Assembly: GCA_963729535.1 (NCBI GenBank)
Contig: CAVSOL010000002.1
Coordinates: forward strand, 771,503 to 835,502
Reading direction: 5' to 3'
Length of the DNA stretch: 64,000 nt
Source of the DNA: an uncultured Pseudomonadota bacterium
Lineage (GTDB): Bacteria; Myxococcota_A; Polyangia; Fen-1088
The number at the start of each line of letters is the position of its first letter. Positions within the stretch are counted from its first letter, which is position 1. The translations under genes were made by a program, and so were the position numbers. The notes beneath the pieces were generated by a model. That model saw nothing but the letters and a program-made list of their open reading frames with translations, searched no databases and had not been told where the DNA came from. Of this stretch, positions 4,802 through 63,194 are shown piece by piece.

Positions 4802-4803
4802 CG

Positions 4804-7123: not shown

Positions 7124-7164
7124 CGCGCCTTAGCCTACTCCAGCGTCAGACGGATCAGACAGGT

Positions 7165-7626: not shown

Positions 7627-7644
7627 GGCGCAACTTCGCCCGGA

Positions 7645-8263
7645 TCAGCGCCCGCCCGGGCTCCCGTTGGCCGTCTCGATCAGGCCGTAGTTGCCGTCCT
7701 TGCGCCGGTAAAGGACGACCGTACGGCCGCTGGTGGCGTCGGTGAACACCAGTAGCTCGTCACCCAGCAGGTTCATCTGCATCACGGCGTCCTCGACCGT
7801 CATCGACCGCGCGGTGAAGCGCTCGTCCTTGATGACGTTGTAGCCGGCGACAGCCGTAGCCACGGGCGTCGGGGGCGTTGTCGCCGGCTGGGGCTGCGGC
7901 TGCGGCTCGACCTCCTCGGCGGTGATGACCATCTCGCGCACCGACGTCGACGGCCCGCCGTGCGGCTTGTGGTCGCGGATCTTGTCCTTCCACTTGCGAA
8001 CCTGGCGTTCGATGCGCGCCGCGGCGAGGTCGATGGAGGAGTACATGTCCTCCGTCGTCTCCTTGGCGTTGATGACGATGCCGCTCGGCAGCGTGATGTT
8101 CAGATCGGCGACGTGATGGAAACCGCGTTCGACCGAGAACACCGCATGGGCGTGAGATCGGATCCTTGTTGAAATACTTACGAATCTTCTCGAGCTTATC
8201 GGCCGCATACTCTCGCACCGCTTGCGAGGCATCCATGTGCCGAAACGTCGTGGAGAGCTGCAT
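7645..8263 (-). CDS. hpf: Ribosome hibernation promoting factor, long form (one frame break near 8150)
   Basis: The N-terminus MQLSTTFRHMDASQAVREYAADKLEKIRKYFNKDPI is in ORF 7760..8263. The continuation HAVFSVERGFHHVADLNITL..IERQVRKWKDK..FTARSMTVEDAVMQMNLLGDELLVFTD..VLYRRKDGNYGLIE is in ORF 7645..8313. Confidence 0.85.
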
Positions 8264-8414
8264 GACGCTTCCTTCCCGTTGGCCGATTTACCGTGTGCGC
8301 CGCCGGTCATCACTTGCGACCGGGCCGTTTACGCGCACCGCTTTTACCCCTTTTCCCGTCGAGGAACAATAAATACGGGGGGGCCGCCGGACCCAGACCG
8401 GGCCGCCCGCCGTA

Positions 8415-9917: not shown

Positions 9918-10028
9918 GCGGCGACCTCGTTCACTTGTAACACTTGAAGGTCGGCACCGACAAGCGTCAAGGGGCTTGTGGTACACGAATTGCACATACT
10001 CTGTCGCACACCAACGCCCTGGGCGAGC

Positions 10029-11810
<1,782 letters not shown>

Positions 11811-11833
11811 TTATGTCGTGAGCAGGGAAGTCA

Positions 11834-12211
11834 ATGCCTCGTGAGGTGATTCTGATCATCGAAGACGACGCGCACATCGGTGGGCTGGTCGTCCAGGTGC
11901 TTCGCGAGGCAGGCTTTGCGCCCGTGCTGGTGCGCGACGTGGGCGCGGCGCGGACCTGGCGGGCGGAAGGCAACGCGCCCGCGGCCGTGATCAGCGACCT
12001 CATGGTCGCGGGGTCGCCCGGACCGGCCCAGCTTCCGTCGGAGCTCGGCGGCATTTTCCCGTCGACGCCGCTCGCGCTGATGACCGGCGTGCCGCCGCGG
12101 CGGCGCGCGGCGCTGGGCGTCACCCACGACCGCGTCATCGAAAAGCCGTTCGAGCTCGAGACGTTGATCGACACCGTCAACGGCATGCTGGCCGTGGCGG
12201 CGGCGCAATGA
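11834..12211 (+). CDS. Single-domain response regulator (receiver only)
   Basis: 125 aa. It has the acidic pair IIEDD, the phospho-acceptor context VISDLMV, a conserved T (LALMTG) and a conserved K (IEKPF). The stop overlaps the ribF ATG (ATGA). Confidence 0.85.
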   Translation: MPREVILIIEDDAHIGGLVVQVLREAGFAPVLVRDVGAARTWRAEGNAPAAVISDLMVAGSPGPAQLPSELGGIFPSTPLALMTGVPPRRRAALGVTHDRVIEKPFELETLIDTVNGMLAVAAAQ

Positions 12212-13158
12212 AGCTCGTGGCCGGCGCGACCGAGTTCGCGGCGACGGCGCGCGCGGGCGACCCGCGGCCGCTGGCCGTGGCTGTGGGTAACTTCGACGGC
12301 GTGCACATCGGCCACCAGGCGCTGCTGCGCGAGGCGCGTGCGCGCGCGGAGCGGCACGCCGCGCGCGCCGCGATCTTGACGTTCACGCCCCACCCGGCGC
12401 GGCTGTTCGCCCCGGCGAAGGCGCCGCCGCTCATCATGCCGCTCGCACGGCGGCTGGAGCTGTGCGCCGAGGCCGGCATCGAGCTGGCGATCGTCGAGCC
12501 GTTCACCCGTGAGTTCGCCGCGACGCCCGCCGACGCGTTCGTGCGCGACGTGCTGGGCCGTGACCTGGGCGCGCGCGACGTCGTGGTCGGTTACGACTTC
12601 AGCTTCGGGCGCGGGCGCGCCGGCGACGCCCGCCTGCTGGCGCAGCTCGGCGCGAGCCTGGGTATCGAAGTCGCCGTGATCCCGCCGGTCGCGATCGGCG
12701 ATACCAGCTGCTCGTCGACGCGCATCCGCGAGCTGGTCACCGCCGGCGACACCGTCGGCGCGGCGCGGCTGCTGGGCCGGCCGTTCGAGCTCGAAGGGCC
12801 GGTGGTGCGCGGAGCGGGCCGCGGCCGCGGCCTCGGCTTCCCGACCGCCAACATCGCCGCGGAGGGGGAGCTTCGCCCGGCGCTAGGCATCTACGCGGCG
12901 CGCGCGCGCGTGCTGGACGGCGAGCTTGCAGGCCAGGTCCACGCCGCGGCGCTCAGCGTCGGCCGGAATCCGACGTTTTCTTCTGCTGCCGACGTCAGCG
13001 TCGAAGCGTACTTGCTGGATTTCGAAGGTGATCTTTACGACCGGCGGCTGCGCGTCGAGCTCGGCGAGCGATTGCGCGACGAGTTGAAATTCGACTCGGT
13101 CGCGGCGCTGGTGGCGCAGATCGAGCGAGACGTCGCGCGTATCCGACAGCTAGTATGA
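12208..13158 (+). CDS. ribF: Bifunctional riboflavin kinase / FMN adenylyltransferase
   Basis: 316 aa. It has VAVGNFDGVHIGHQ, GYDFSFGRGRAG, and the kinase part GLGFPTANI..VEAYLLDF. Confidence 0.95.
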   Translation: MKLVAGATEFAATARAGDPRPLAVAVGNFDGVHIGHQALLREARARAERHAARAAILTFTPHPARLFAPAKAPPLIMPLARRLELCAEAGIELAIVEPFTREFAATPADAFVRDVLGRDLGARDVVVGYDFSFGRGRAGDARLLAQLGASLGIEVAVIPPVAIGDTSCSSTRIRELVTAGDTVGAARLLGRPFELEGPVVRGAGRGRGLGFPTANIAAEGELRPALGIYAARARVLDGELAGQVHAAALSVGRNPTFSSAADVSVEAYLLDFEGDLYDRRLRVELGERLRDELKFDSVAALVAQIERDVARIRQLV

Positions 13159-13611: not shown

Positions 13612-14157
13612 TCAGGGGTTGGTGCGGACGACGCGGAACGCGCCGTCGGTGACGGTGACGGTGCGCGCGGGCACCATCGACTTCAACGTCGCCGTGAACG
13701 TGCCCTGGATGACGTCGCCGATGGCCGGGGCGGCGGACGTGACGTTGACGCTGCAGCTGCCGCCGCCCAGATCGGATCGCGGGTTGCCGTTGTTGTCGAA
13801 CAGCCCGACCCAGCCCATCCCACAGTCGTGCATACCGACCTGGTTCAGTACGTAGAGATTCCACGACGTCGGCGCCGTCCCTGCAACGACCCAGATCTGA
13901 CCATCGGCCACGCCCTGAACGCCGGCTTTCGGCTCGGACTCGGCGCGAACGACGACGCCGTCGACGGTGCCGGTGATGAAACCGGGTGCGCTGCCCCCCG
14001 CACCGCCGGCGCCTGTGCTGCCGCCGCTGCCCGCGTTGCCGGCGCCGCTGCCCGCCGCGCCTCCACCGCCGTCCGTTGCCGCGCCGCCGCCGCCGCACGC
14101 CGCCAGACCCAACGCGATCGACCCTACAAAACCAAGCAACCGATAGCGATAAGTCAT
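13612..14157 (-). CDS. Lipoprotein with a short Gly-rich tether and a beta-rich C-terminal domain
   Basis: The start is at MTYRYRLLGFVGSIALGLAAC (lipobox LAAC). A tether GGGGAATDGGGGAAGSGAGNAGSGG follows, then an unassigned domain of about 125 aa. Confidence 0.7.
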   Translation of the reverse strand: MTYRYRLLGFVGSIALGLAACGGGGAATDGGGGAAGSGAGNAGSGGSTGAGGAGGSAPGFITGTVDGVVVRAESEPKAGVQGVADGQIWVVAGTAPTSWNLYVLNQVGMHDCGMGWVGLFDNNGNPRSDLGGGSCSVNVTSAAPAIGDVIQGTFTATLKSMVPARTVTVTDGAFRVVRTNP

Positions 14158-14215
14158 GGCCAATTCTGCCATGAAGCTCGGCCGCCGCCTCCGATCGGTG
14201 TGATATACGAAGTCC

Positions 14216-15088
14216 ATGTTTCAAGGGGCCATCACAGCGCTGGTAACGCCCTTCCGCGGAGACGCGATCGACGAGGAGGCGCTGCGCCGCCTGGTCGACG
14301 AGCAGATCGCCGCGGGCATTCACGGCTTGGTCCCGGTCGGGACCACGGGCGAATCGCCGACCGTCACCAACGAAGAGCACGTCCGCATCATCGAGATCGT
14401 CGTGCAGGCGGCGAACAAGCGCGTGCCGGTGATCGCCGGCACCGGATCGAACTCGACGCGCGAGACCATCGAGATGTCCGCGGCGGCGAAGCGCGTCGGC
14501 GCCGACGGCCTGTTGCTGGTCACGCCGTATTACAACCGTCCCGGGCAGGAGCACCTTTACCGCCACTTCAAGGCGGTGATGGAAGCCGTGCCGCTGCCGG
14601 CGATCCTCTACAACGTCCCCGGGCGCACCGCGTGCGACGCGCTGCCCGAGACGATCGCGCGCCTCACAGAGGTGCGCACGCTGGTCGCCGTCAAGGAAGC
14701 GACCGGATCGGCGCTGCGCGCAGCGCAGATCATCGCCCGCGTCGGCGATCGGCTGGCCGTGCTGTCGGGCGACGACGCGACGACGTTCCCGCTGCTCGCG
14801 CTGGGCGCGCGCGGCGTGATCTCCGTGGTCAGCAACGTCGCGCCCGCGCTGATGAGCGGCATGTGCAACGCCGCCGCCGCCGGCGACTGGAACAAGGCGC
14901 GCGAGATCCACTACAAGCTGCTGCCGCTCGGCGAGGGGCTGTTCGTCGAGGCGAACCCGATTCCGGTCAAGGCGGCGCTGGCGATGATGGGGCGAATCGC
15001 GGACGAGATCCGACCGCCGCTCTACCCGCTGGCCGAGCAATTCCGCGCGAAGCTACGCGCGCAACTCGCCGAGCTCGGACTGGTCTAA
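14216..15088 (+). CDS. dapA: 4-hydroxy-tetrahydrodipicolinate synthase
   Basis: 290 aa. It has GLVPVGTTGESPT, TPYYNRP, and the active-site Lys context VAVKEATG. Confidence 0.97.
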   Translation: MFQGAITALVTPFRGDAIDEEALRRLVDEQIAAGIHGLVPVGTTGESPTVTNEEHVRIIEIVVQAANKRVPVIAGTGSNSTRETIEMSAAAKRVGADGLLLVTPYYNRPGQEHLYRHFKAVMEAVPLPAILYNVPGRTACDALPETIARLTEVRTLVAVKEATGSALRAAQIIARVGDRLAVLSGDDATTFPLLALGARGVISVVSNVAPALMSGMCNAAAAGDWNKAREIHYKLLPLGEGLFVEANPIPVKAALAMMGRIADEIRPPLYPLAEQFRAKLRAQLAELGLV

Positions 15089-15913: not shown

Positions 15914-17291
15914 TTACCAGGTGACGGCGTCGACGTAGGCGCTGAACGCGCCGCTGGTCTGGAACTCGACGCCCACCTGCTTGCCCGAGCAACCGGCCGG
16001 CACGGTGATGGTGACGACGTTCCACGAGCCCTTGAGCACGGTCGACACCGGGTTGATCACCTTCCACTCGTTGCCGCCCGACCTTCTTCACGAACGGGTT
16101 GATGTGCGGTGAGCTTGCTGTCCGACGCGAGGTACAGATAGAAGCTCACCTTGGTGCCGGCGGGGAGCGCCAGGTTCGACGGGCCCTGCATGCGGATCGT
16201 GCCGGAGCCGCTGGCGTAGGCCGCCTTGAGGAACTTGCTGCCCGTCTGCGCGACGGTCTGGTTCGACGAGCTCAGCACGAGCTGGGTGTTGCCGGCGGTC
16301 CAGCCGTCGACGCCCGATTCGAAGTCGTAGCGGACCGTGCGCCCGTCGGCGGTCTTGCCGGCGACCACCTGGCCGGAGGAGGTGAAGCTCTTGTTCTGCC
16401 GCCACACGGTGATGGTCTCGTTCCACGCGCTCATCGGGCCTTCGCCCATCGCGCACGCCTTGTAGCCATCGGGGACGTTGTTGGTCTTCGCGTCCGACGG
16501 GACGCAGCCGTTGATGTGGCAGAAGCCGCTGGCAAACAGGTTGCGATACGGCGCGCCTGTCTGCTTGGCGCCGATGCGCCCCTCGACGACGTCCTTGTCG
16601 AAGCCGGGGCCGCTGCAGTAGTAGGCGTCGATGCGGCCTACGTTGTTCAGCTGGAACATGTTGCCGAAGAACGTCCCCTCCTGGTTGGGGTAGTTCGGAT
16701 CCTGGCCCCAGCCGATCGCCGAGTTCTGCGCGACGATGGAGATCGGCACGTGAATGCCGGCAGTGTTGACGTGGGCGAGCAAGCAGGCGGAGATCCAGCG
16801 CTTGCACGGGACCGTCGCAGACGCCGTTCTCCCACTGAGGCGCGAGGCCGAGCGAGCCTTGCATCGTGATACGAGGTGCCGTTCTGGTCTTGCTTCGCGA
16901 TGCTGCGGCCTTCGGGCAGCGCGCAGCGAACAAGGTACTTGGACATCATGCGCCCGCCGTCGGTCGTCATGAGCCCGTTCATCGTCAGCCCGTTCATGGT
17001 CAGCCCGTTGACGGCGCTGAGGCCGTTCATGGTCAGGCCGTTCATCGTCAGCCCGTTCATGGTCAGGCCGTTCATCGTCAGCCCGTTCATGGTCAGGCCG
17101 TTCATCGTCAGCCCGTTCTCTGACGCCTCGAGGGCGCTGGTGTCCTCCGCGACGCCGTCGTCGTCAGAGGCCGGCAAACATCCGAGCCCCGCGAAGGTGG
17201 CCGACATCGGCAGCGACAGAGCAAGAGTGGGCGACTCGGGACTGAGCGTGACGGGCCGGTGCATACCGGGCCAATCGGTTGCAGTAAGCAT
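15914..17291 (-). CDS. Secreted protein with an NGLTM pentapeptide-repeat array, a Cys-rich core domain and a C-terminal CBM-like beta-sandwich (about 4 frame breaks)
   Basis: The N-terminus and (NGLTM)x6-NGLSAV-(NGLTM)x2 are in ORF 16647..17387. The core YLVRCALPEG..TMQGSLGLAPQWENGVCDG..CKRWISACLLAHVNTAGIHVPIS..RIDAYYCSGPGF..FCHINGC spans three frames. The tail ..INPFVKKVGGNEWKVINPVSTVLKGSWNVVTITVPAGCSGKQVGVEFQTSGAFSAYVDAVTW stops at 15914-15916. Breaks lie near 16080, 16105, 16810 and 16870. The start codon choice is uncertain. Confidence 0.65.
16977..17114 (-). repeat. 15-bp coding tandem repeat (GTTCATSGTCAGSCC); the last 90 bp are three exact 30-bp units
   Basis: Read directly from the sequence. 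Positions 17025..17054, 17055..17084 and 17085..17114 are identical 30-mers. More degenerate 15-mers occupy 16977..17024. On the minus strand the array encodes NGLTM units. Confidence 0.9.
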
Positions 17292-17345
17292 GCCTACAAA
17301 ATAAATTTGAGTAAAATACTTAACTAACTGATTCTTATATGGCTC
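17292..17345 (-). promoter_or_regulatory. AT-rich island immediately upstream of the repeat-protein gene (probable promoter / AU-rich leader)
   Basis: Positions 17296..17340 contain only 8 G/C in 45 nt (acaaaataaatttgagtaaaatacttaactaactgattcttatat), inside an otherwise very GC-rich window. The island ends 5 nt before the ATG at 17291. TATAAG and TATTTT hexamers are present on the minus strand. Confidence 0.4.
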
Positions 17346-17426
17346 GTCGTGAGCCGTGCCTGGCAGGCGTTGCGTCATCAGCAACACCTGCCCGTTATCG
17401 AGGCAACAGTCGGACTTAGCCCGCGG

Positions 17427-18507
17427 CTAGCCGGCCGCTTTGGCGAACGTCGCCATGAAGTCGGCCAGCGCCTTGGCGCCCGCGACCGGCATCGCGTTGT
17501 AGATCGACGCGCGGATGCCGCCGACCGTGCGGTAGCCCTTGAGCGCCACCATGCCGGCCTTCGCGGCATCCTTCACGAACTTGTCGGTCTGCTCTTCGCT
17601 GGGGAGCAGGAACGTCACGTTCATGTGGCTGCGCGCCGCCTTGTCGGCGACCGTCCCCTTGTAGAAGCCGCCCGACGCGTCGATGGCGCCGTAGATCAGC
17701 GCCGCCTTCTCGGCGTTGCGCTTCTCGACGGCGGCCAGGCCGCCCTGCGCCTCGATCCACCGGAACGTCTCGAGCAGGAAGTAGATGCCGAACGTCGGCG
17801 GCGTGTTGAGGCAGCTCTTGGCCTCGGCGAGCGCCTTGAAGCTGAAGATCTTCGGCACGCTCTTGGCGATGCGGTCGTAGAGGTCCTTGCGCACGATCGT
17901 CAGCACGACGCCGGCCGGCCCGAGGTTCTTCTGCGCCCCCGCGTACACCAGCGCGGTGCGCGCGATCGGGTGCGGGCCGCGACATCATCTCGGAGCTGGA
18001 GTCGACGACCAGGTTCGCGTGCTCCGGCCATTCGACCAGCCGGTGGCCGTGCACGGTCTCGTTCGAGCAGACGTGCAGGTAGGCGGCGGCCGGATCGGCC
18101 GTCCAGCCCGTGGGCGGACGATCGAAGTTGGTCGCTTCGCTGGAACCAATGACGCGGATCTTCTCGCCGTAGGCGCTCTGCGCCGCGGACGCCGCCTTCT
18201 TCGACCACTCGCCGCCGACGACGTAGTCGGCCGTCCCGTTGAGGATGTTCATCGGGATGACGTTGAACAGCTGCGTCGCCCCGCCCTGCAGGAAGAGGAT
18301 GTCGTGCGTATCCGGCACCGACAGCAGGCTCTTGCACTTGGCGATCGCCTCGTCGAGGACACCGTCGAACTCCTTGCCGCGGTGGCTGCACTCGGCGATG
18401 CCGAAGCCCTTGCCCTGGTAGTCGACCAGAGCCTTGGCGGATGCCTCGAGGACCTCTGCCGGCAGCATCGCCGGCCCTGCGCTGAAGTTGTAGACGCGGT
18501 TGCTCAT
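17427..18507 (-). CDS. serC: Phosphoserine aminotransferase (one frame break near 17960)
   Basis: The N-terminus MSNRVYNFSAGPAMLPAEVL..FLQGGATQLF..VDSSSEMMSRP is in ORF 17416..18507. The continuation ..ALVYAGAQKNLGPAGVVLTIVRKDL..GGIRASIYNAMP is in ORF 17427..17948. Confidence 0.9.
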
Positions 18508-22707: not shown

Positions 22708-23862
22708 CTAGTTGCCGCAGCCGATGCGGGCGCTGTCGATCGCGACCTCGTCGATCCAGGCAGTGAACCCGGGCGGCGCGTTCTGGTACGTGATGAAGCC
22801 GACGCGGAAGTCGGTGAACATCATGGGAAGGTGCGTGCGGTTGTCGCCGCTGCCGTTGTTGCCGGCGCCGTTCGCCAGCCGCATCTGCGTCACCTCCGCG
22901 CCGTCCCAGTAGAACTGGTAGGCCTGGTTGGCGCCGTCGACGAACCACTCGGCGCAGTGCCAGGCGCCGTCGAACATCCAGTTGTACGGGCCTTCCTTGC
23001 CGAACTCGCTCGAGCCGGTGATCTGGACGTTGTAGAGGAACTGGTGCTTCGCCGTCGTCCCCGTCATCTTCACGGTGTCGACGACACGGAAGGTCGACGG
23101 TCCGATGCCGGGCCCGTCGCCCTGGTACGCCGCCATCGACGCGTGCACGAACGCCTCGGGCGGCGGCGTCTGCACGCGATAGAAGATGCGCCCCCAGTGC
23201 GCCGCGCCGAACGCCTCGGAGTTGCCGTAGTTGTAGAAGCCGTAACCCTTGTCGGCGGCGGGCGTCAGCTTGAGCGCGTGCGCGCCGCGCGCCGCCTGAT
23301 CGTCGGCGACGGTCGCGTTCCCCGATCGCGACCATCCCGACGGCGTGTTGTTGCCGACGTTGACGCCTTCGAAGCCTTCGCACAGCAAGAAGCGCCCCGC
23401 GGTGCACAGCGACGCGCCGCCGATGCCGGCGCTGCCGGTCGCGCCACCCGCGCCGCCACGTCCGGCGGTTCCGCCGGCGGCACCGCCCGCGCCGCCACGT
23501 CCCGCGCCGCCGCCGGCCGCACCTGCCAGTCCACCTTGCCCCCCCCCGCCGCCGCGTCCCGCCGCGGTGCCCGCGACGCCGCCGGCGCCGCCGCGACCCG
23601 CGCTGCCGCCAGCCATGCCGCCCGTCCCCGCCGTACCCGTGCCGGTGCCGGCCAATCCACCACCGCCGGCTATGCCCGACGCGCCCGCGACGCCGGTGCT
23701 GCCGCCGCCACCCGCGACGCCCGTACCGGCGGCGCCGCCGCCGGGGCCGGAGCCACCGTTGCCAGCCGCGCCCGCGCCGGGATCGATGCCGGGCTCCGAC
23801 TCGGCACACGCCGCCAGCGCCAGCGCCGCGAACGACGTCACGATCGATCTGCGGAGGTTCAT
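22708..23862 (-). CDS. Lipoprotein: about 130-aa Gly-rich tether plus a concanavalin/LamG-like C-terminal domain
   Basis: The ATG is at 23862. It begins MNLRRSIVTSFAALALAAC (lipobox), followed by a GGxAG low-complexity tether and a domain of about 230 aa (..GFEGVNVGNNTPSGWSRSG..WHCAEWFVDGANQAYQFYWDG..TAWIDEVAIDSARIGC). The fold assignment is by feel only. Confidence 0.7.
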   Translation of the reverse strand: MNLRRSIVTSFAALALAACAESEPGIDPGAGAAGNGGSGPGGGAAGTGVAGGGGSTGVAGASGIAGGGGLAGTGTGTAGTGGMAGGSAGRGGAGGVAGTAAGRGGGGGQGGLAGAAGGGAGRGGAGGAAGGTAGRGGAGGATGSAGIGGASLCTAGRFLLCEGFEGVNVGNNTPSGWSRSGNATVADDQAARGAHALKLTPAADKGYGFYNYGNSEAFGAAHWGRIFYRVQTPPPEAFVHASMAAYQGDGPGIGPSTFRVVDTVKMTGTTAKHQFLYNVQITGSSEFGKEGPYNWMFDGAWHCAEWFVDGANQAYQFYWDGAEVTQMRLANGAGNNGSGDNRTHLPMMFTDFRVGFITYQNAPPGFTAWIDEVAIDSARIGCGN

Positions 23863-23867
23863 GTGGA

Positions 23868-24938
23868 TCACCTGATGTCGATCTCGTCGACGAGCAGCGC
23901 GCCCGTATACGTCGTGCCCGCCAGCCACTGGATCGAGATCGCGCTCACCGCGCTGGTCCCCGCGTCCGCGCCGCTGGGCAACGCCACGCTGCGTGTCGTC
24001 CACGTCCCCGGCACCGGCGCCGGCTGAGACAGCACGATCGTGTAGCTCGGCACCAGAAACACCAGGATGAACCCGCCCGCCGGCCCCGCCGGCGACGCCT
24101 TGTACGAGATCGAAAACATCTTGCCGGAGACGTCCTCGGCCGCCGCGAGCGGGATGATCGCCTCGCCCTTGACGTTGGTCGCGTCGAACGTGGTGTCGAG
24201 CCGCAGCGCGCCCCCACCGCAGAACGCATCGGCGCTGTTGGTGATCGTCGTGAACGACGTCTGATAGCCGGTGTTGGCGCGGGCGCCGTGCAGCGCTCCC
24301 GCCTCGAAGTTGAAGCGCGCCGAGCACGCGGCGCCATCCATGCCGGCGTCCATCGCCGCGCCTGCCCCGCCGCCGCGACCACCCGCGCCCGCCGCGCCGC
24401 CGGCGGCACCGCCGCGCCCCGCGCTGCCCGCGTCGCCACCGCCGCCGCTGCCACCACGCCCAGGCGCGCCCGCCACGCCGCCGCCCACGCCCGCCGCGCC
24501 GCCGCCCGTCCCTGCTGCACCACCCGCCGCGCCACCACGGCCGCCCGCCCCCGCGGGACCGCCCGTTCCCGCGCCACCGCCACCCGCGACGCCGCCGCCC
24601 CGGCCGCCGGGCGAACCCGCCGCCCCGGCCGCGCCTGAGGCTCCCGCGGCGGCGCCACCCCGCCCGCTCGTGCCAGCGACGCCACCAGCAGCGCCCGCCG
24701 CGCCACCATCCGCGCCCGCCGGACCACCGCCGGTGCCAGTCGCTGACATGTCCACGCCCGCGTCCCTCATGCCGCCCGCTCCACCACCGCCGCGGCCGGC
24801 TTGGCCTTGAACGCCGCTGGTTCCGCCTTCACCTTCCGCGTCGCCATCCGGCGCGCGCATCCCTCGGTTGGCACACGACGTAAGAACCACGAGGACCGCA
24901 GAAAGGGTCAGCGCGGGGGCGATAGGACAAATGCGCAT
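23868..24938 (-). CDS. Lipoprotein: about 185-aa Gly-rich tether plus a CBM-like beta-sandwich domain (paralog of 25075..26353 at the N-terminus)
   Basis: It begins MRICPIAPALTLSAVLVVLTSCANRGMRAPDG (lipobox LTSC). The C-terminal 150 aa read FNFEAGALHGA..ALRLDTTFDATNVKGEAIIPL..YTGALLVDEIDIR. The ORF track starts at a GTG (24944); I chose the ATG at 24938. Confidence 0.7.
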   Translation of the reverse strand: MRICPIAPALTLSAVLVVLTSCANRGMRAPDGDAEGEGGTSGVQGQAGRGGGGAGGMRDAGVDMSATGTGGGPAGADGGAAGAAGGVAGTSGRGGAAAGASGAAGAAGSPGGRGGGVAGGGGAGTGGPAGAGGRGGAAGGAAGTGGGAAGVGGGVAGAPGRGGSGGGGDAGSAGRGGAAGGAAGAGGRGGGAGAAMDAGMDGAACSARFNFEAGALHGARANTGYQTSFTTITNSADAFCGGGALRLDTTFDATNVKGEAIIPLAAAEDVSGKMFSISYKASPAGPAGGFILVFLVPSYTIVLSQPAPVPGTWTTRSVALPSGADAGTSAVSAISIQWLAGTTYTGALLVDEIDIR

Positions 24939-25074: not shown

Positions 25075-26353
25075 TCACTGCGCGACGAAGCGAACGTCGT
25101 CGATGCGCAGCTCGACGCTGCAGGTGCCGGTGCCCGATGATCCGGAGTTGGCCTGCCACTGCACGCCGACGATCTGCGTCGGCGTGGCGATCGTCGAGCT
25201 GGCCGGGTTATTGAACGCGGTGAAAGGCACGACGTAACTCGCCGCGACCGGTGTCGCGAGGGTCGCCGCCGGGTAGCGATAGCAGCCTCCGGCACCGTTC
25301 GGGTTGCACGTGCCGCCGGTTGGATCTGTCACGGTCGACGGACGCTGGTCCTGCGTCTGCAGCTGCACCTGCCAGACGCAACCGACGAGGCTGCCCATCG
25401 TGACCGACGCGGTGAAGGAGATCGCATTGAAGGACGATGCGTCGACACACGAGTCGAACGAGATGCCGCCGCCCGCGTACTGGCCGGCTGAAACGGTGAA
25501 GTTGAGTCGCAGGTTGCGCGCCGTCGTGTCGACCACCGCCGTGCTCGCCGACGGCGTCGCGCCCGCATACGCAAAGGTGTCGCCGTCCAGCCCGTTCGCG
25601 TCGCACCACTTGCTCGTCGTGGCGTTCCATTCCAGCGCCGAGAAGTCGACCACCTGACCGCCGGGCGTCATGTCGAGCGATCCGGTCATCGAACAATCGA
25701 GCACGCCGCCGAGCGGGCACGAGTACGGGCCACCGGCCGAGCCGCCCGTGCCGGCAGCGCCGCCGCCGCGACCGCCCATGCCCGCGACGCTGCCGCCCGC
25801 GCCTGCTGGTCCGCCTCCGGCGCCCGCTGGTCCACCGGCGGCGCCCGCCGCACCGCCGCCGCGGCCCCCCATCCCGGCGACACCACCGCCCGCGCCCGCC
25901 GGGCCGCCCGCCGCGCCCGCGGGTCCGCCCGCCGCGCCCGCGGGTCCACCCGCCGCGCCCGCTGGTCCGCCGCCCGCGCCTCCAGGTCCGCCGCCCGCCC
26001 CCGCCGGTCCGCCGGCGGCGCCGCCGCCACGGCCACCCATCCCGGCGACACCACCGCCTGCGCCCGCCGGCCCACCACCTCGGCCTGCCGCACCGCCGCC
26101 CATGCCCGCGACGCCGCCTGCGATGCCCCCGATGCCGCCGCCCGCGCCGCCACGACCGGCGCTACCGCCCAACGCCTACCTCAGCCGCACCCGCATCCCC
26201 GGTGCCGCCGCGACCACCCGCTCCGACGGTACCGGCCGCGCCCTGCGAGCCGCCGTCGGGAGCCTTCATGCCACGGTTTGCACACGCCGCAACCGCGAAC
26301 GACAGCAGCAAGATCGCTGGGAGCGATGAACGAAGGGGCACTGAAGTGCTCAA
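25075..26353 (-). CDS. Lipoprotein: about 190-aa Gly-rich tether plus a CBM11/CIA30-like domain (one frame break near 26168)
   Basis: The N-terminus ..LPAILLLSFAVAACANRGMKAPDG is in ORF 26162..26353 (TTG or GTG start). The tether and the domain ..VVDFSALEWNATTSKWCDANG..GGISFDSCVDASSFNAISFTASV..VGVQWQANSG..ELRIDDVRFV are in ORF 25075..26172. Confidence 0.65.
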
Positions 26354-48920: not shown

Positions 48921-50506
48921 CTACTGCGTGAGCGGCTGGTACGCCGTCATGTCGAAGTAGTTGCCGGTCATCATGAGCAGCGACAGCACTGTCCACGATT
49001 CGTCGTAGTACGCGCCGCCGACCAGCATCTGGCGGGTCGCGACGCGCGCGTAGCTGTCGTTGATGAATGTCTGGTAGGTTGCGCTGCTCATCGCGCCGAC
49101 GCCCGCAGGACCGACGAAGGCCGCGGACTGCTGCGCCAGCGTCGGAGTCCCCGTTGCTGGCGAGAACTGCACGCGCTTGTTGCCGTTCATCTCGTAGCCG
49201 TCGACGATGTTGGCGGCGCCGATGCCGCTGAAGAAGCTGCTGGTCTTGGCCAGGTAGTCGCGGGCGCGCTGCTCACCGAACCAGCACCAGTCGAGCGCGA
49301 TGCGGAACGGCGTGCGGCAGGAGTCGTACTGGTAGTGGAACGGCGTCGTCGGCGACATGCCGCCCGAGCTGGTGCACCACGCGGGGACCAGTCCGTTGGT
49401 CATGTTGCCGTTGCTCGCGTTCAGCGATGCGATGATCGTGTCGTAGGTCGTCTTGATCACCGCGTCCCAGTCGTGGCCGGGGTCGACCTGCTTGAAGATG
49501 CGATAGAAGGCCGGCGCGAAGTACGAGATGTTGATGTGGTTCCACAGGTTGGTCGGCCCCCAGCTGTCGCCGGGCCCCGCCAGCTTGCTGTCGATGATCT
49601 CGTGGTTCCAGATGTTGTTGATCTGGCTCTTCGCCAGGTTCAGGTAGTTGAGCGCGCCGGTCGAGCCCCACTGCCGGTCGGCCATCACCAGCGAGAACGC
49701 GATGTCCTCGTCCGCATCGGTCGCGCCGCCCACGCCTGGCGTCCCCATGCCGTCGGCGGTGATCGACCAGTTCATCAGGCCGTTGCCGTTGAGATGTTTC
49801 TGCGAGTAGTTCCACAGGTCGTCGAACAGCGGGCGGTCGTTCATGTACACCGCCATCATCATCCCGTACGAGATCCCCTCGGAGACCGTCGAACCTGGCA
49901 GGCGTGTACATGTTGACGGGGTCAGAGGGCAGCCGCTGCACGCGGCGAGCGCCGCCGGCGCCGTTCGCTGGTGACGGTGTCGGCCTTCCATTGCTCGTAG
50001 GCTGCGACCACGTGCGAGTTGAGGTAGCCGGTCGGGTAGACGCAGCGCGATGACTCGCGGTTCTGGGGGAACGGGAAGTTGACGCCATTGACCGCGGGCG
50101 TCGGCCCACGCGTCGGCGCGCCACCACCAGAGCCCGCGCCGCCCCCGGAGCCGCCGCGGCCGCCGCCGGCCCACGTGCCGCCCCCGCCCAGGCCACCCGC
50201 GCCCGAAACGCCGCTGCCGGCGACGCTGCCGGCCGTGCCGAGGTTGCCCGCGACGCCGGAGCCGGCACCGCCGCTGTTGCCACCGACGCCTGTGCCGCTG
50301 CCGCCGCCGCCGGACACGACGGTGGTGCCAGCCGCCCCCGTCGTGCCGCCCGTGGCGCCGCCGGCGCTGCCGGCCGCGCCCGCCGTTCCGGCGCCCCCGG
50401 GCGTGCCGTGATGTCCGGTCAAGCCGGTGCAGTCAGCAAGCGAAACGAAGCTCGCGAAGCCGAGGATAAGGGTCGCGATATGCGAAGCGGATTTCGGGTG
50501 ACGCAT
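48921..50506 (-). CDS. Glycoside hydrolase family 8-like glycanase on a Gly-rich tether (two frame breaks, near 49895 and 49960)
   Basis: The signal peptide MRHPKSASHIATLILGFASFVSLADC and a tether of about 125 aa are in ORF 49922..50506. The catalytic part in ORF 48921..50174 reads TVSEGISYGMMMAV..ATDADEDIAFSL..YFAPAFYRIF..DSCRTPFRIALDWCW. Confidence 0.8.
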
Positions 50507-50588: not shown

Positions 50589-51869
50589 CTATTTCGCCGT
50601 CTCGTGCTGTCTGAATGCCACGGCGCCGAAGCTGACGACGCTGGCTTCGTCGATATTCCAGTGTTCGTACGCCAGGCGGCGGCCTCGCGTGCTCGGCACA
50701 GCGCGCAAGAACGTGTAGAGCGGCGACGATCCACACCACTTGAGATCGTCGTCGCCGTTCTCGACGACCAGGTTCCAGAAACCCGCCGCGTCACCCGCGA
50801 CCACCCGATCCAGCCGCGCGTCGTCGCGTTCGGCGACCTCGGCCAGCGGCCCCTCGTAGGCGCGGGCCGCGCGCGCGTCGCCGTAGCGGCGGCCGACGTG
50901 CGCGAAGTCGACGCCCAGCACGAAGCACAGCTTCGACCCTTCGCGCGCCGCGATGTCGCCCAGCTTGTCGATGAACGCCGCGACCGTGTCACTGGCCTCG
51001 GGCGGACGGCGCGCGAGCGGCCCGCCCACGAACGCGCCGCACAGCACGGGCAGGATGCGCACGCGCGGCCCGTAGATGTACTGCAGGAAGACCACCTGGA
51101 ACTCGATCGAGTGCTCGACCGCGTGGCAGTAGTCCTCGACAGCCACCGACCGCCGCGCGCCGGCCGCCAGCTCGTCGACCAGCGCCAGCTCGGTGGGCGC
51201 GACGCCGAACGGCGTGGCGAATGGTTTCCGCGTCAGCCCGAAGCGATCGGGCTCGCCATAATGCGACGTCCCCAGCACGACGAAGATCCGCTCGCCGTCG
51301 CCGGGCGGCAGCGCGCGATACGCCGCGGCGTAGCTGGCGCTTCCCCCCTCCGGGCTGACGTGCGGCGCCGCGATGCCGATCAGCGGCCCGCCACCATTGC
51401 GCTTCTTCGCGGCCGGTTTTGCCGCGTCGAAATATCCGCGCAGCTTGCTGGTCAGCGCGGCGCCATCGTCCGGGTAGCCGCTGCCGGAGTGTGCCGGGGC
51501 GCGCTCGGGTGTCGCCGCGAACTCGCGCTCGCGCGCGCCGCGCATCTCCGCGAAGCGCTGGTCGTCGAGGAAGCCGGCGTCGCGCAAGGCGGTGATGAGA
51601 CGCTTGCTGATATCCGCAACCGCCACCTGCCCTGTCAGCCGCGCGAGCGCCGCGCGCAGGTCGCCTTCATCCTGCTCGCCGTCGAAGCAGCCGAGGCAGC
51701 GGGCGAGGATCGGCGGGATGATCAGCGTCACCGTCGAGTACTGGAACGGATCGCGGATCAGCAGTCCCGGCTGATCCGGGACCGGCGACGGCATCACGTC
51801 GAGGTCGGCGCGCAGGCGCGGCAGGGGGGCTGCCATGAAGCGAGGTCTCCCCTCGCTCATAGCACGCAA
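50589..51869 (-). CDS. MEMO1 / AmmeMemoRadiSam-system-protein-B family protein with an N-terminal extension of about 130 aa
   Basis: 426 aa, intact. Family motifs are IAAPHVSPEGGSASYAAAY, VVLGTSHYG, AVEHSIEFQVVFLQY, GVDFAHVG and KWCGSSPL. The N-terminal part reads ..GLLIRDPFQYSTVTLIIPPILARCLGCFDGEQDEGDLRAALARLTG..LITALRDAGFLD. Confidence 0.8.
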   Translation of the reverse strand: MRAMSEGRPRFMAAPLPRLRADLDVMPSPVPDQPGLLIRDPFQYSTVTLIIPPILARCLGCFDGEQDEGDLRAALARLTGQVAVADISKRLITALRDAGFLDDQRFAEMRGAREREFAATPERAPAHSGSGYPDDGAALTSKLRGYFDAAKPAAKKRNGGGPLIGIAAPHVSPEGGSASYAAAYRALPPGDGERIFVVLGTSHYGEPDRFGLTRKPFATPFGVAPTELALVDELAAGARRSVAVEDYCHAVEHSIEFQVVFLQYIYGPRVRILPVLCGAFVGGPLARRPPEASDTVAAFIDKLGDIAAREGSKLCFVLGVDFAHVGRRYGDARAARAYEGPLAEVAERDDARLDRVVAGDAAGFWNLVVENGDDDLKWCGSSPLYTFLRAVPSTRGRRLAYEHWNIDEASVVSFGAVAFRQHETAK

Positions 51870-51884: not shown

Positions 51885-52922
51885 CTACGGACAGGGTGGG
51901 TTCGTGGCGCCGGGGGTGCCGTAGTCGGTCGCTGTGCCGTTCGTGTTGTACGGCGTCATCGCGATGCAGTAGTTCGCCGGCAGGTCATTTTCGATCGCGT
52001 TGTAGTGCGCCGGATCGACGGCGAATGAACGGCCGCCGATCGAGGCCAACGAGTCCGGATAGGCGTACGTATCGATGACCGTCGAGCCGCAGATGAGGTT
52101 GATCTGGTCGCCGGCCTGATTGTCGAACTTGATGCCGGTGTAGATGTAGTCAGGGGTGAAGCCAGGGTTGGCGGAGATGGCGAACGTCTTGAACGTGCGC
52201 GGCGGCATCAAGAGGTGCGTCACGATGACGTGGGGATTGGCCACATCCCGGAGCGTGCACCCGAAAAGATCGAAGGTGACTGCCGGGTCCGGGTTGAAGA
52301 GCTCGAACCATTCCCCGAAGTCGTCGTTGTTGACGACGACAGCGTCGTGCATCAACTCGGTCAGCGACGAGCTGGCCGGCCACCGTCGGGATCACCGCAG
52401 GCGCGCCGCCCGTGCCACCGGCGCCACCACCGCCCGTCCCCGCCACGGCGCTGCCCGCATCACCGCCGCGACCGGCGCTGCCGCCCATGCCGCGCGCTGC
52501 CGCCCATGCCCGCGCTGCCGCCCATGCCCGCGCTGCCGCCCATGCCGGCGCTGCCGCCCGTGCCCGCCATGGCGCCGGTGCCGCCGGCGCCGCCACGACC
52601 CGCGGCGCCCGCTGTGCCGCCGGTGCCTCCGGTGCCGCCACGACCCGCGGCGCCCGCTGTGCCGCCGGTGCCTCCCACGCCGCCTGAGCCGCCAGATCCG
52701 CTGCCACTCAATCCACCGCTGCCACTGCTGCCACCGCTGCCACCGCCACCAATGCCAGCGACACCGCTGCCGCTCGCGCCACCTCCGGCGCTGCCGCCAC
52801 GGCCCGCGCTGCCGCTGCCCGCCTGCCCGCCATCGAACTGCCTGTACATCGCCTCGGTGCAGCCGACGGCCGCAAACAGCGCGGCGGCGCAGCTCGACAG
52901 CAGCAAGCGCCCGGTTCGACAT
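51885..52922 (-). CDS. Lamin-tail-domain (LTD) lipoprotein on a Gly-rich tether of about 190 aa (three frame breaks)
   Basis: The ATG at 52922 gives MSNRA, followed after a break by LLLSSCAAALFAAVGC (lipobox). The tether contains tandem GGSAGM units. The C-terminal LTD reads TELMHDAVVVNNDDFGEWFELFNPDPAVTFDLFGCTLRD.. (ORF 51885..52355). Breaks lie near 52365, 52495 and 52905. Confidence 0.7.
52477..52567 (-). repeat. 18-bp coding tandem repeat (GCTGCCGCCCATGCCCGC), about 5 copies; the first copy carries an extra base
   Basis: Read directly from the sequence. Copy 1 (52477..52495) is 19 nt and coincides with a frame break. Copies 2-5 are 18 nt each. A separate 45-bp unit is duplicated at about 52591..52675. 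Confidence 0.85.
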
Positions 52923-52926
52923 CCGC

Positions 52927-53936
52927 TCAGAACCTGAACGCACAGCCCACCGAATCCTTTCCGCCGAAACAGGCCACCGTGCTCGTGGCCGGCGCGCTCT
53001 GCTCGGAGGGCCAGAAGATCGCCGCCAGGACGCCGGTCACGATGGCGGTCGCACCGAGCCCGATCGTGGTGCCCATCGCGAGCGCTGCGCTCAGTGCGTA
53101 GATCTTCGACTCGTTCGTGCACTCGACGATCATGTCGGCCTCCATCGACCGGCACTCGTTGAGCTCCTACTGTCTCTTGCTCCACCACAGCGCGCTGGCG
53201 CCTGCCGACGAGCGCGGCGACCCCGGCCGCGCCCACCAGCCACAGGTGGCCCGAACCGCCGCCTCCGGCGGTGTCTTGCTGGCCGCCGACCAGCGTGGGG
53301 ACGTTGCCGTCCCCTGCCCCGCCGCCCGTCGTATCCGCCGTCGCCGGCGGCGCCGATGCGAGCGCGAGCGTCAGCTCGATGGGCTTCTTTTCACCGCCCA
53401 CGACGTCGACGGTCAGCTGCTTCTCGTTCGGCGAACACGTCGCGCAGCGCACCGACAGCTCGTGACGGCCGAGCGGCAGCAGCACGCCGCCGTCCCCCTC
53501 GAGCACCGCGGGCCTGCCGTCGACGAACACGGACAGGCTCGCCGGGCTCAGCTTCAGCGAAAATTGTCCGACGAACGTCTCGGCGCGCGCGAGCAACGCC
53601 TGCGCGTGCTTGCGCTGGTCGGCGGTCAACGGGCGCCGCTGGTCGCGCAGCGCCGCCGCCAGCGCGCGCGTCGCCTCGACGTAGTCGCGCATCTCGAACG
53701 AGGCCATGCCGATGCCGCGCAGCGTGCGCGCCGTCGGAGACTTCTCGTGCGCAAGCCGGAACAACGCCCGCGCTTCCTCGTAGCGGCCCGCATCATATTC
53801 GGCGACCGCGTCGCCGATCAGCACGGGAACGGCGGTGTTCGCCGCGTCGTCGGACTTGTCGGCCGGCTTGTCCGCGGCCCACCCCGCCGCGGCGACCGCG
53901 GTCACGACCAGCGCCGCGATTGCGGTCACCGCTGTC

Positions 53937-53947
<11 letters not shown>
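52927..53947 (-). CDS. Signal-anchored TPR/PEGA-like protein (frame break near 53200 and an in-frame TAG at 53167..53169 as sequenced)
   Basis: It begins MTSRTAVTAIAALVVTAVAAAGWA. A TPR-like part reads AEYDAGRYEEARALFRLA and a PEGA-like part reads LSVFVDGRPAVLEGDGGVLLPLGRHELSV. After the break the text reads GASALWWSKRQ-TAG-ELNECRSMEADMIVEC..TTIGLGATAIVTGVLAAIFW..ACFGGKDSVGCAFRF (ORF 52927..53145). It is unresolved whether the last 72 aa are the tail of this protein or a separate small gene. Confidence 0.5.
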
Positions 53948-55406
<1,459 letters not shown>

Positions 55407-60661: not shown

Positions 60662-62686
60662 CTACTTGAACTCGATCTCGAACCGGCAGGCATCGGCGCC
60701 GTGGCCGCCGATGCACGCGGTCTCGCTGACGCGCACCGGGTGCCTGAAGATGCTCTCGACGGCGCCGGCCAGCAGGCCGCCCTCGAAGTGGCAAATTGCG
60801 TGGCCGCGGGCGTTCAGGCCGGAGCACGCGGCGCACTCGCGCACGGCGACCCTGATGACGGACTCCGACACCACCGAGGCGTCGATGAGACCGAGCTTGA
60901 GCGAATCGACGAAGGCGACCAGCCCGTCCAGCGTCGTGAGCCCCAGCGACCGTCCCAGCTTTTCGCCCGCGGCGCGCGCCGTCGCGGCGGCCTCGGCGCC
61001 GCTGCCGGCGTCGAACGCCACCAGCCGCAGCATCCGGTAGAGACCGACGCCCGCATCGCTCCCCAGCGTCGGGCGCGAGATGCGCAGCGCGCCGGCGACG
61101 TCGACGGCCGGCGTCTGGGCGCGCAACCGGCCGAGATCGCCGCGCATGCGCTGCACGCTCGACTGATAGACGTGGTTGTCGGGCGCGAGCGCCAGCGCCT
61201 TCTCCCACGCGTTGAGCGCCTCGCCGTAACGCCCGGACGTGCGCAGCTCCAGGCCGCGGTCGTAGAGCTCGACGGCCCGCTCGCGCGCCCCGCGCTCCGC
61301 CTCCGGCGATCCGGAGCGCGTCGTCGTGCGCCAGCCGCGCACCGCCGTCCCGGCGGGGACCGCGCGCGCCGCGAAGATCGACACGGGCGGCGGCAGCGGC
61401 GGCGCCGCGACCGGCGGCAGCGGTGACGCCTTGACCGCCGTCGGCAGCGGCGGGGGCAGAGGCGCCGGCGGCATCAGCTTGCGGATCGGCCCCGACGCCT
61501 CGAGGATCTCGACCTCGCACAGCGCGAAGTCATCGTCCGTCCCCGTCGCCGGGCCAGGATAGTCGTCCGCCGACACGCCGATCGGCTCCGGCACGGCTTC
61601 GGCTGCCACCGCCGGCGCCGCGGGCGCGGCGACGACGGCGGGCGGCGCCTCCAGCAGGGTCACCAGCGCCGCGGTGACGTCGCGCTCCTTGCTGCCCGCG
61701 CCCAGCTCGCCCATGCAGGCGGCGAGCGCCAGCCGCAGGTCGCGCGCGCTGGCGAAGCGGTCGTCGGGGTTCGGCGCGGTCGCCCGCACCACGGCCTCGG
61801 CCAGCCGCGCCGGGAGCTCGGGCACCCGCTCGCGCGGATCACACCCGCGGCTGCTGGCCAGCGCGGCCTTGATGACGTCGGCGTCGGGGCCGTCGAACGG
61901 CCGCTTGCCGGTGATGCACTCGTAGAGGATCACGCCGGCGGAGTACACGTCGCTGCGGCGGTCCTCGCTCGCCTGTCGGATCCGCTCCGGCGCCGAGTAG
62001 CGGTACTTGCCCACGAACACCGGCGTCGGCGGCGTACGCGCGGTGGCGCGCGCCGCGCCGAAGTCGATCAGCTTGGCGCTGCCGCTGGTCGACACGATGA
62101 TGTTGTCGGGGGAGAGGTCGCGGTGCACGAGGCCCATCACGCCGTTCGCGTCCGCGGCTTCGTGCACGTGCTCCAGCGCGTCGCACACGTCCATCATCAC
62201 GTGCAGGGCAGTGGTCAGCGGCAGCCGCTCGCCGCGCGTCACCATCCGCTTGTGTGCCAGGCGCAGCGTCACGCCCGGCACGTACTCCATGGCGATGAAA
62301 TACCGCCCCTCGAGCTGACCGAAGTCGAAGACGTGGACGATGTTCGAGTGACTGAGCTGCGCGGCGAGAGCCGCCTCGGCGATGAACATCTGCACCAGCT
62401 CGGTGCGGTGCTGCAGCCGCGTCAGCATCGTCTTGATGACGATGCGCTTTTCGAACCCCTGCGCCCCCTTGACCTTGGCGCGCCACACTTCGGCCATGCC
62501 GCCCGCGGCCAGCAACGAATCGATCGCGTAGCGGCTGAACTCCGCACCCTGCACCCACGGTGACGCCGTGGCGGCGACCGGCGCCGCGGCGCCCGTCTGC
62601 TCCGTCGGTGTCGGCGCCACCGGCACGCCCGAAGCGCCGCGCGGCGGCGCGGGTGTTGGAGCGAGGTTGTCCTCTCGTGAACGCAC
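60662..62686 (-). CDS. Ser/Thr protein kinase fused to a TPR-like segment and a C-terminal V4R domain
   Basis: The kinase part has LAAGGMAEVW, VIKTM, HRDLSPDNII, DFGAA and YSAPE. The middle has a Pro-rich linker and a TPR-like YDRGLELRTSGRYGEALNAWEKALALAPDN. The C-terminus reads LYRMLRLVAF..ICHFEGGLLAGAVESIF..VSETACIGGHGADACRFEIEFK, which fits the V4R pattern. The start is set at the GTG at 62686 (GAGG upstream), because the longer ORF would overlap the plus-strand gene 62835..63194. Confidence 0.8.
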   Translation of the reverse strand: MRSREDNLAPTPAPPRGASGVPVAPTPTEQTGAAAPVAATASPWVQGAEFSRYAIDSLLAAGGMAEVWRAKVKGAQGFEKRIVIKTMLTRLQHRTELVQMFIAEAALAAQLSHSNIVHVFDFGQLEGRYFIAMEYVPGVTLRLAHKRMVTRGERLPLTTALHVMMDVCDALEHVHEAADANGVMGLVHRDLSPDNIIVSTSGSAKLIDFGAARATARTPPTPVFVGKYRYSAPERIRQASEDRRSDVYSAGVILYECITGKRPFDGPDADVIKAALASSRGCDPRERVPELPARLAEAVVRATAPNPDDRFASARDLRLALAACMGELGAGSKERDVTAALVTLLEAPPAVVAAPAAPAVAAEAVPEPIGVSADDYPGPATGTDDDFALCEVEILEASGPIRKLMPPAPLPPPLPTAVKASPLPPVAAPPLPPPVSIFAARAVPAGTAVRGWRTTTRSGSPEAERGARERAVELYDRGLELRTSGRYGEALNAWEKALALAPDNHVYQSSVQRMRGDLGRLRAQTPAVDVAGALRISRPTLGSDAGVGLYRMLRLVAFDAGSGAEAAATARAAGEKLGRSLGLTTLDGLVAFVDSLKLGLIDASVVSESVIRVAVRECAACSGLNARGHAICHFEGGLLAGAVESIFRHPVRVSETACIGGHGADACRFEIEFK

Positions 62687-62834
62687 GACGACCGGGCCTC
62701 GGATCAACGGCCGAGGTGGGCAAAACTTAAGCGCGACGCCAATCACATTCGGCCTGTGAGCCTCCCGCGCCAGCGGGGACCCGCCCTGGTTTGCCAGGAA
62801 CGACGCCGGCCGGCATGCTGGCCAGCCACACCCC

Positions 62835-63194
62835 GTGTCCCACCTGTTCTCGACACAGAGCTTCATGCCCCGGGGGCACGCGTACCTGTGGACGCCTGCC
62901 CTGATGCTGGGCGAGGTCATCGCCAGCCTGGTCATCGCGCTCGCGTGCGCGGTGATGGCGGTGATCTTCGCGCGCTGCCGCCGCCGCGGGGCGCTGGCGA
63001 TGGCGCTGGCGGCAAGTGGGCTGGCGGCGGCGCACGTCCTCGACGCCTGGGTCGTCTGGCACCCGGCCTACGGCATCGACCTGGTCGTCCGCTGCGCGAC
63101 CGCGGTGGCCGCCGTCGTGGCGGCCGTCGTGCTGCCGCGCCTGCTGCGTGACAAGCCGGCGCGCGGTGCGCGAAACGACGATGGCGATCGCTGA
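62835..63194 (+). CDS. Small polytopic membrane protein resembling the N-terminal membrane module of PAS/GAF sensor histidine kinases (stand-alone)
   Basis: 119 aa. The sequence is [37 protein letters not shown]...[31 protein letters not shown]. From memory it matches the FMPHGxCYLWxP..W.P.Y module at the start of many sensor kinases, but no kinase domain follows. Confidence 0.6.

Follow-up and report, generated by a model that had tools for sequence, protein, structure and literature searches.

A PqqD/RRE-like domain fused to a MEMO-type core in Polyangia and Acidobacteriota: a putative peptide-directed enzyme away from AMMECR1 and radical-SAM partners

We analysed a 64,000-nucleotide stretch of DNA (henceforth the window) from an uncultured soil bacterium of the Polyangia (assembly GCA_963729535.1, contig CAVSOL010000002.1, positions 771,503 to 835,502 of the forward strand). 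On its minus strand lies an intact gene, here called RRE-MEMO, whose product joins an N-terminal domain resembling PqqD and other RRE domains (RiPP recognition elements; RiPP, a peptide made by the ribosome and modified after translation) to a catalytic core of the MEMO type. The gene, its parts and the putative metal ligands are located as follows (positions are those of the window, residues are numbered from the start codon adopted here; aa, amino acids).

50589..51836, minus strand: complete RRE-MEMO fusion coding sequence, 415 aa plus stop, a single intact frame (list of open reading frames, homolog starts, tblastn)
51846..51852, minus strand: Shine-Dalgarno-like GGGGAGA (including GGGAGA), 9-10 nt 5' of the ATG at 51834-51836, read from the sequence
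51561..51836, minus strand: PqqD/RRE-like winged-helix domain, residues 1-92 (AlphaFold2, Foldseek, hhalign)
51504..51560, minus strand: helix of residues 93-111 (DQRFAEMRGAREREFAATPE), the link between RRE-like domain and MEMO core (AlphaFold2)
50592..51503, minus strand: MEMO (LigB-superfamily) catalytic core, residues 112-415 (PF01875, TIGR04336, phmmer, Foldseek)
51360..51362, minus strand: codon of His159, at the position of the MEMO1 metal ligand H49 (alignment; invariant in 74 sequences)
51261..51263, minus strand: codon of His192, at the position of the MEMO1 metal ligand H81 (alignment; invariant in 74 sequences)
50733..50735, minus strand: codon of Cys368, at the position of the MEMO1 metal ligand C244, the Cys replacing the Glu of dioxygenases (alignment; invariant in 74 sequences)

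As listed, the open reading frame (ORF) runs over 50589..51869 of the minus strand (426 aa) with a TTG start at 51869. All 120 best homologs start at MAAPLPRL, 11 codons inside the listed ORF, and these homolog starts, together with the Shine-Dalgarno-like motif before the corresponding ATG, led us to define the gene as given above. When the ortholog from the related locus L001 was used as tblastn query, residues 1-411 aligned in a single frame with an identity of 87%. No database record was identical to the window protein, whichever of the two start codons was taken. More than 6000 database proteins match the fusion protein, and the best 120 clusters are 394-483 aa long (most of them 410-430), with a query coverage of at least 92% and typically about 96%. 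The extension ahead of the MEMO core measures 111 aa, the core beginning at R112 according to Pfam, TIGR04336 and the alignment to MEMO1. Among the 120 homologs the columns of the first 110 residues are as well conserved as those of the catalytic core, which marks the extension as a selected domain rather than the product of a mis-called start. The preliminary description of this DNA, whose quoted N-terminal sequence and ORF are indeed present on the minus strand of the window, had placed roughly 130 aa ahead of the core; the extension is real, its length has been corrected to 111 aa and the start moved 11 codons further in.

The assignment of the core is straightforward. PF01875 (Memo) scores 100.6 bits (cutoff 27) over residues 125-415 of the listed ORF, and TIGR04336, whose match begins at residue 123 of the listed ORF, scores 83.9 bits (cutoff 26). 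In a phmmer search of the Protein Data Bank (PDB) sequences human MEMO1 was the sole match, starting at residue 112. The full-length AlphaFold2 (AF2) model has a mean predicted local distance difference test score (pLDDT) of 88.3 and a predicted template modelling score (pTM) of 0.89, the latter suggesting a fixed arrangement of the two domains. Foldseek aligns this model to the MEMO1 structures (7kq8/3bcz) with an E-value of about 1e-16 and a template modelling score (TM) of 0.80, the LigB-type extradiol dioxygenases being a more distant match (E 1e-7 to 1e-5). H49, H81 and C244 of MEMO1 bind iron or copper (PMC11081632), and beside the three equivalent positions listed above, D310 and H313 next to the predicted metal site are also invariant in the 74 sequences. 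Judged from these alignments, the core looks like a functional MEMO-type metal site of the 2-His-1-Cys kind.

The N-terminal domain required more evidence. The AF2 model of residues 1-110, built from 74 sequences (pLDDT 94.3, pTM 0.85), places three strands (13-16, 25-28 and 37-40) before three helices (42-50, 57-68 and 74-86), an order repeated identically in the full-length model, and this topology fits the strict structural definition of an RRE (PMC12710340). The linker helix spans residues 93-108 in both models, with R94, F95, R99 and R102 conserved. With the N-domain model as query against 350,542 PDB chains, the five best Foldseek matches all contained an RRE. They were ThcOx, a cyanobactin oxidase (5LQ4, probability 0.97); PqqD (5SXY, probability 0.90, TM 0.57 to the target); TruD, a heterocyclase (4BS9, probability 0.85); TbiB1, a lasso-peptide RRE, with its leader peptide bound (5V1U, probability 0.80, TM 0.62); and, more weakly, SuiB, a radical-SAM enzyme (probability 0.16). 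The first four superpose with root-mean-square deviations of 3.2-4.0 across about 85 columns, with a TM of 0.57-0.62 to the standalone RREs, while DNA-binding winged helices reached a probability of 0.03 at most.

A profile-profile comparison with hhalign leads in the same direction. The PqqD profile was an alignment of ten annotated pqqD genes from plasmid records, which were found with a bait sequence 98.9% identical to an annotated Klebsiella pqqD; this bait was used for finding records only. The first N-domain profile aligned in register with PqqD (N-domain 45-91 to PqqD 46-93, P = 1.5e-4), and a deeper one (123 sequences from two phyla, effective number of sequences 3.7) did so over 59 columns with a score of 30.1-30.4 and P = 5.5e-5, the match again being in register (N-domain 33-91 to PqqD 28-87) and now taking in beta3. 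Among 200 column-shuffled PqqD profiles the score was 11.1 +/- 1.8 with a maximum of 17.3, so that none of the 200 reached the real score, and the reversed profile scored 15.4. From sequence profile and predicted structure we take the likeness of the N-domain to RRE and PqqD to be sound as regards fold and remote homology. The PqqD/RRE-like character that had been proposed from the letters is thus supported by the AF2 topology, by the Foldseek search on the N-terminal residues (with the weak E-values given below) and by the hhalign match with its shuffled controls, and the pattern 'L..xDG......L' that had been picked out by eye falls inside the stretch aligned by hhalign.

When a genome collection was scanned with the N-domain, 331 species-representative genomes proved to hold relatives. 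Of these 331, the best 80, around whose loci all ORFs were clustered, belong to the Polyangia (60-80% identity) and to the Bryobacterales/Solibacteraceae group of the Acidobacteriota (51-64% identity). Across these two phyla the N-domain retains 51-62% identity. In a collection of 1.84 billion clusters the N-domain profile matched 579 representative clusters (50% identity), and among those examined the recognisable partner domain was Memo every time. Candidate standalone RRE proteins (matches of about 100-200 aa) were rejected: the majority either stop within the domain or continue into Memo motifs, and are fragments or frameshifted fusion genes. Likewise, P0174, P0184, P0235 and P0239, four proteins whose N-domain is internal, were inspected for other partners and had none but Memo.

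Canonical partners are missing from the vicinity of the gene. A six-frame motif scan of the 64 kb gave no AMMECR1 signature, CX3CX2C motifs occurred in the window only in Arg/Cys-rich translations that resemble wrong-frame readings, and Pfam scans of essentially all substantial ORFs in the window found neither PF01871 nor PF04055. The earlier impression that these 64 kb hold no AMMECR1-like and no radical-SAM gene therefore stands on both kinds of scan. On three orthologous contigs, which are syntenic with the window, the precomputed Pfam annotation contains no AMMECR1 or radical-SAM gene within +/-10 kb, and 84 related loci taken with +/-10 kb of flanking sequence (1.4 Mb in total) held no AMMECR1 signature and no recurrent radical SAM, the radical-SAM-like motifs around them being sporadic and of unrelated types. 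One acidobacterial locus (L070) has a radical-SAM-like gene with the motif CPYDCIFC (11445-12944, minus strand) directly downstream of RRE-MEMO on the opposite strand, the only such adjacency among the 84 loci.

The gene neighbourhood differs between the two phyla. In the Polyangia a gene order is kept, namely kinase, (LTD lipoprotein), RRE-MEMO, GH8 and M23, whereas in the Acidobacteriota the neighbours vary and include SDR, beta-lactamase-like, YceI-like, serine acetyltransferase and sulfatase genes, among others. An apparent cross-phylum upstream partner and apparent tandem Memo paralogs were rejected, since inspection traced them to single linkage having joined a generic SDR cluster and to high-GC shadow ORFs. 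Precursor peptides were sought by clustering short ORFs (15-80 aa) lying up to 2 kb from RRE-MEMO across 81 loci. The clusters so obtained were rejected as precursors, those spanning both phyla being Arg-rich low-complexity junk and those within one phylum out-of-frame pieces of neighbouring genes.

Two local arrangements were also seen. In the window (51885-55406, minus strand) and at L001 (6505-11248) four genes are co-directional, encoding a Ser/Thr kinase, a protein of about 340 aa that Pfam does not match, a lipoprotein that has an LTD domain and a Gly-rich linker, and RRE-MEMO. This array is found in many Polyangia loci, with overlaps or very short gaps between genes, 36-48 nt before the MEMO gene and no terminator, which suggests co-transcription; the arrangement is absent from the Acidobacteriota. 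In one Polyangia genome (L003/L067, 9295-9939, minus strand) a gene for the peptide methionine sulfoxide reductase PMSR/MsrA stands divergently just upstream of RRE-MEMO, placing a repair enzyme of protein oxidation beside a putative redox enzyme. MsrA was considered as a general partner and dropped, the pairing not being general.

What might such a protein do? From the RRE-like fold we infer a peptide or protein-tail substrate. The reading that we favour, with a probability of roughly 55%, is that of a two-domain enzyme in which RRE-guided binding of a peptide or protein tail would precede redox modification at the MEMO site, with no linked AMMECR1 or radical-SAM protein. The protein would be cytoplasmic, with an RRE-fold N-terminus of about 92 residues, a conserved helix and a MEMO core carrying the 2-His-1-Cys site. 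Its RRE-like domain would bind an extended segment of the substrate as an extra strand beside beta3/alpha3, and neighbouring residues of the substrate would be held at the iron or copper site of the core for modification. It would work with no AMMECR1 or radical-SAM partner linked to it in the genome, as a vertically conserved single-gene function of Polyangia and Bryobacterales-type Acidobacteriota. Given that RRE-MEMO sits outside any RiPP gene cluster, its ligand probably comes from a gene in another part of the genome. A narrower version, in which the protein is a housekeeping-type leader-guided metallo-oxidase acting without AMMECR1 or radical-SAM help on a ribosomal peptide or protein tail encoded elsewhere, is put forward as a tentative suggestion.

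Several observations weigh against this peptide-directed reading. The Foldseek matches of the N-domain have weak E-values (0.05-0.8, in no case 1e-3 or lower), as is expected for a domain of about 90 residues, and Foldseek alone is known to give many false positives for short domains (PMC12710340), a warning that made us add the independent profile-profile test described above. Scans of the N-terminal 135 aa of the window protein and of the N-domains of 18 homologs gave neither PF05402 nor any other Pfam or NCBIfam match at E <= 10, and the N-domain profile found only chance-level matches among all PDB sequences. The residues that are invariant across phyla lie in the sheet and loops (L8, R9, L12, P16-S17, P23-G24, R28-D29, P41 and D52-G53), while alpha2 and alpha3, including the helix that usually binds the leader, are the least conserved part across phyla; seen from the alignment, an interdomain interface could be another cause of the invariant sheet and loop residues. 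No conserved precursor-like short ORF flanks RRE-MEMO in either phylum (81 loci), so that the idea of finding substrate candidates among short conserved ORFs near orthologs came to nothing, and the intergenic gaps beside the gene in the window measure only 48 nt and 82 nt, which leaves no room for a precursor gene there. There is no RiPP-type cluster around RRE-MEMO, its neighbours being housekeeping or variable; such a cluster is typical and not obligatory, accompanying about 60% of RREs (PMC12710340). The neighbourhoods are ordinary and no neighbour is common to both phyla, unlike those of most characterised RRE enzymes. Finally, no MEMO protein has a known catalytic activity, and MEMO1 showed none as a dioxygenase (PMC11081632).

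Part of this evidence would suit other explanations. The extension could have been an artefact, either a mis-called start or a small upstream gene joined to the MEMO gene by an assembly frameshift, since at least four neighbouring genes switch frame relative to their orthologs, so that indel errors are present, and since the listed ORF did begin 11 codons too early. This is ruled out by the 410-430 aa architecture seen in the 120 best-scoring homolog clusters of the more than 6000 matches, by full-length members, always in one frame, among 80 independent loci of two phyla, by the one-frame alignment of residues 1-411 to the L001 ortholog and by the confidence with which AF2 models both domains plus the linker. 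The main rival to a peptide-directed enzyme, possible and clearly the less probable of the two, is that the N-domain descends from an RRE or winged helix and no longer binds a substrate peptide. It would then be a structural, oligomerisation or regulatory module on the MEMO core, or would dock a folded partner, and the enzyme would act on a small molecule or handle metal as proposed for MEMO1. The distribution of invariant residues and the variable alpha2 and alpha3 would agree with such a module, as would the tight interdomain packing suggested by the pTM of the full-length model and the lack of precursor-like ORFs and RiPP-type context; moreover, human MEMO1 binds iron or copper, with a glutathione near the site, and no peptide chemistry has been demonstrated for it (PMC11081632). 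What tips the balance towards peptide binding is that the fold matches RREs specifically, with DNA-binding winged helices staying at the low probability given above, that the sequence profile relates the N-domain to PqqD, a peptide chaperone, and that in the clusters examined the domain is fused to Memo only, as would be expected of a substrate-delivery module.

It is also conceivable that RRE-MEMO is the B component of a true AmmeMemoRadiSam system whose A and radical-SAM genes lie elsewhere in the genome, its RRE-like domain recruiting a substrate shared by all three proteins. The TIGR04336 score well above its cutoff, the public naming of homologs as 'AmmeMemoRadiSam system protein B' and the fact that RREs commonly serve radical-SAM enzymes (e.g. 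PqqD with PqqE, or SuiB) would be in line with such a dispersed trio. We regard it as improbable. An AMMECR1 signature is absent from the 1.4 Mb around the 84 loci, where the radical-SAM-like motifs are sporadic and unrelated, and the Pfam annotation of the window and of the three orthologous contigs contains no partners; besides, about 84 bits is modest for a model of 270 positions, and canonical B proteins are without the 111-aa extension.

As a whole, the window is core genome of an ordinary kind, from a Polyangia-like genome of about 70% GC. It holds ptsI, rapZ, hprK, ptsN, hpf, rpoN, pyrG, ribF, dapA, anmK, prfA, comEC and ffh, together with prmA, NAD kinase, recN, the M23 peptidase, the GH8 glycosidase, the LTD lipoprotein, Ser/Thr kinases and a TonB-dependent receptor. 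A compact nitrogen phosphotransferase (PTS) / sigma-54 cluster occupies 2751-9381 (minus strand), with ptsI, EIIA-Man, rapZ, hprK, ptsN (EIIA-2), hpf and rpoN. GC content dips to 0.63-0.65 at 8001-10000 and at 16001-18000, as against about 0.70-0.75 elsewhere; the first dip lies around rpoN/hpf and the second around serC and a secreted protein whose N-terminus bears an 'ADDERPDHER' repeat (16060-17163, minus strand), and rpoN and serC appear truncated or split. A second Ser/Thr kinase (60665-63067, minus strand) carries TPR repeats and a C-terminal V4R (small-molecule-binding) domain, an architecture also seen where L001 reaches its edge. Several proteins predicted to be secreted or to be lipoproteins, at 22711-24828, 25078-26175, 13615-14220 and 49922-50506 (all on the minus strand), have long Gly/Ala/Ser-rich linkers with GGAGG-type repeats, placed after the signal peptide and before a globular C-terminal domain without Pfam match. 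The mid-gene frame switches relative to L001 orthologs, seen in at least four genes near RRE-MEMO and twice in the GH8 gene, are at the following sites.

~53209: the 340-aa protein
~49966 and ~49928: GH8
~46030: recN
~58038: TonB-dependent receptor

As a housekeeping gene such as recN is affected, assembly indel errors (e.g. from long reads) are likelier than pseudogenes.

The interest of the fusion lies in the standing of its core. The MEMO family, whose conservation extends from bacteria to humans, is linked to the motility of cancer cells; to our knowledge neither the biochemical reaction nor the substrate of its members has been established, nor has the AmmeMemoRadiSam system of bacteria been explained. 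That a MEMO core comes permanently joined to a peptide-recognition domain speaks for a peptide or protein tail as the substrate of the RRE-MEMO branch at least, and the isolated RRE-like domain offers a direct experimental route for fishing out the ligand. Were the narrower, metallo-oxidase reading correct, this domain would be a ready affinity handle for the first physiological substrate of any MEMO-family enzyme, and MEMO proteins in general would prove to be peptide-directed enzymes.

How does RRE-MEMO compare with known systems? Compared with LigB-type extradiol dioxygenases it departs from their 2-His-1-carboxylate site, the third ligand position being Cys368 and not Glu. Its core fold is like that of human MEMO1 (3BCZ, 7KQ8; TM 0.80, 21% identity) and keeps the His-His-Cys site and the nearby Asp and His, whereas MEMO1 is a single-domain protein of 297 aa without an RRE-like extension. 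Qiu et al. are said to have found in 2008 that MEMO1 binds a phosphotyrosine peptide of ErbB2; by analogy, this would fit a peptide-directed role. AmmeMemoRadiSam protein B is accompanied by protein A, which is AMMECR1-like, and by a radical-SAM protein, the genes as a rule being adjacent. The RRE-MEMO core scores above the cutoff of the corresponding model (TIGR04336, a 'hypoth_equivalog') and its homologs bear that name, but RRE-MEMO has the extra 111-aa domain and lacks nearby AMMECR1-like and radical-SAM partners in the window and at the 84 loci. The public label is probably misleading for RRE-MEMO genes, since it rests on the cutoff of a hidden Markov model only and the genomic association that it implies was looked for and not found. 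With PqqD (PF05402), the peptide chaperone of pyrroloquinoline quinone biosynthesis, the N-domain shares the fold, the order of secondary structures, the in-register profile match from beta3 to alpha3 and the motif 'L..xDG...(D/T)...L'. PqqD is a standalone protein of about 90 aa (or fused to PqqC or PqqE) encoded beside pqqA and the radical-SAM gene pqqE; unlike it, the N-domain is fused to MEMO, is missed by the Pfam model and has no precursor or radical-SAM neighbour.

The closest counterpart is already in the literature. RRE-Memo fusions were listed as high-confidence predictions by Bregman et al. (2025, PMC12710340), with a model 'RREFam044 Memo_RRE' (cutoff 20 bits) in Table S1 of RRE-Finder v2. 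That paper gives them one sentence and a table row, without analysis of taxonomy, genomic context, metal site or partners (PMC12710340). To this mention the present work adds the occurrence in 331 species genomes, with the 80 best loci in two phyla, the retention of the MEMO1 metal site and the position of RRE-MEMO outside RiPP clusters with no AMMECR1 or radical-SAM partner nearby. The likeness to the published Memo_RRE is one of fusion architecture; the architecture as such is not new, and the window protein is best described as a member of the published RRE-Memo kind.

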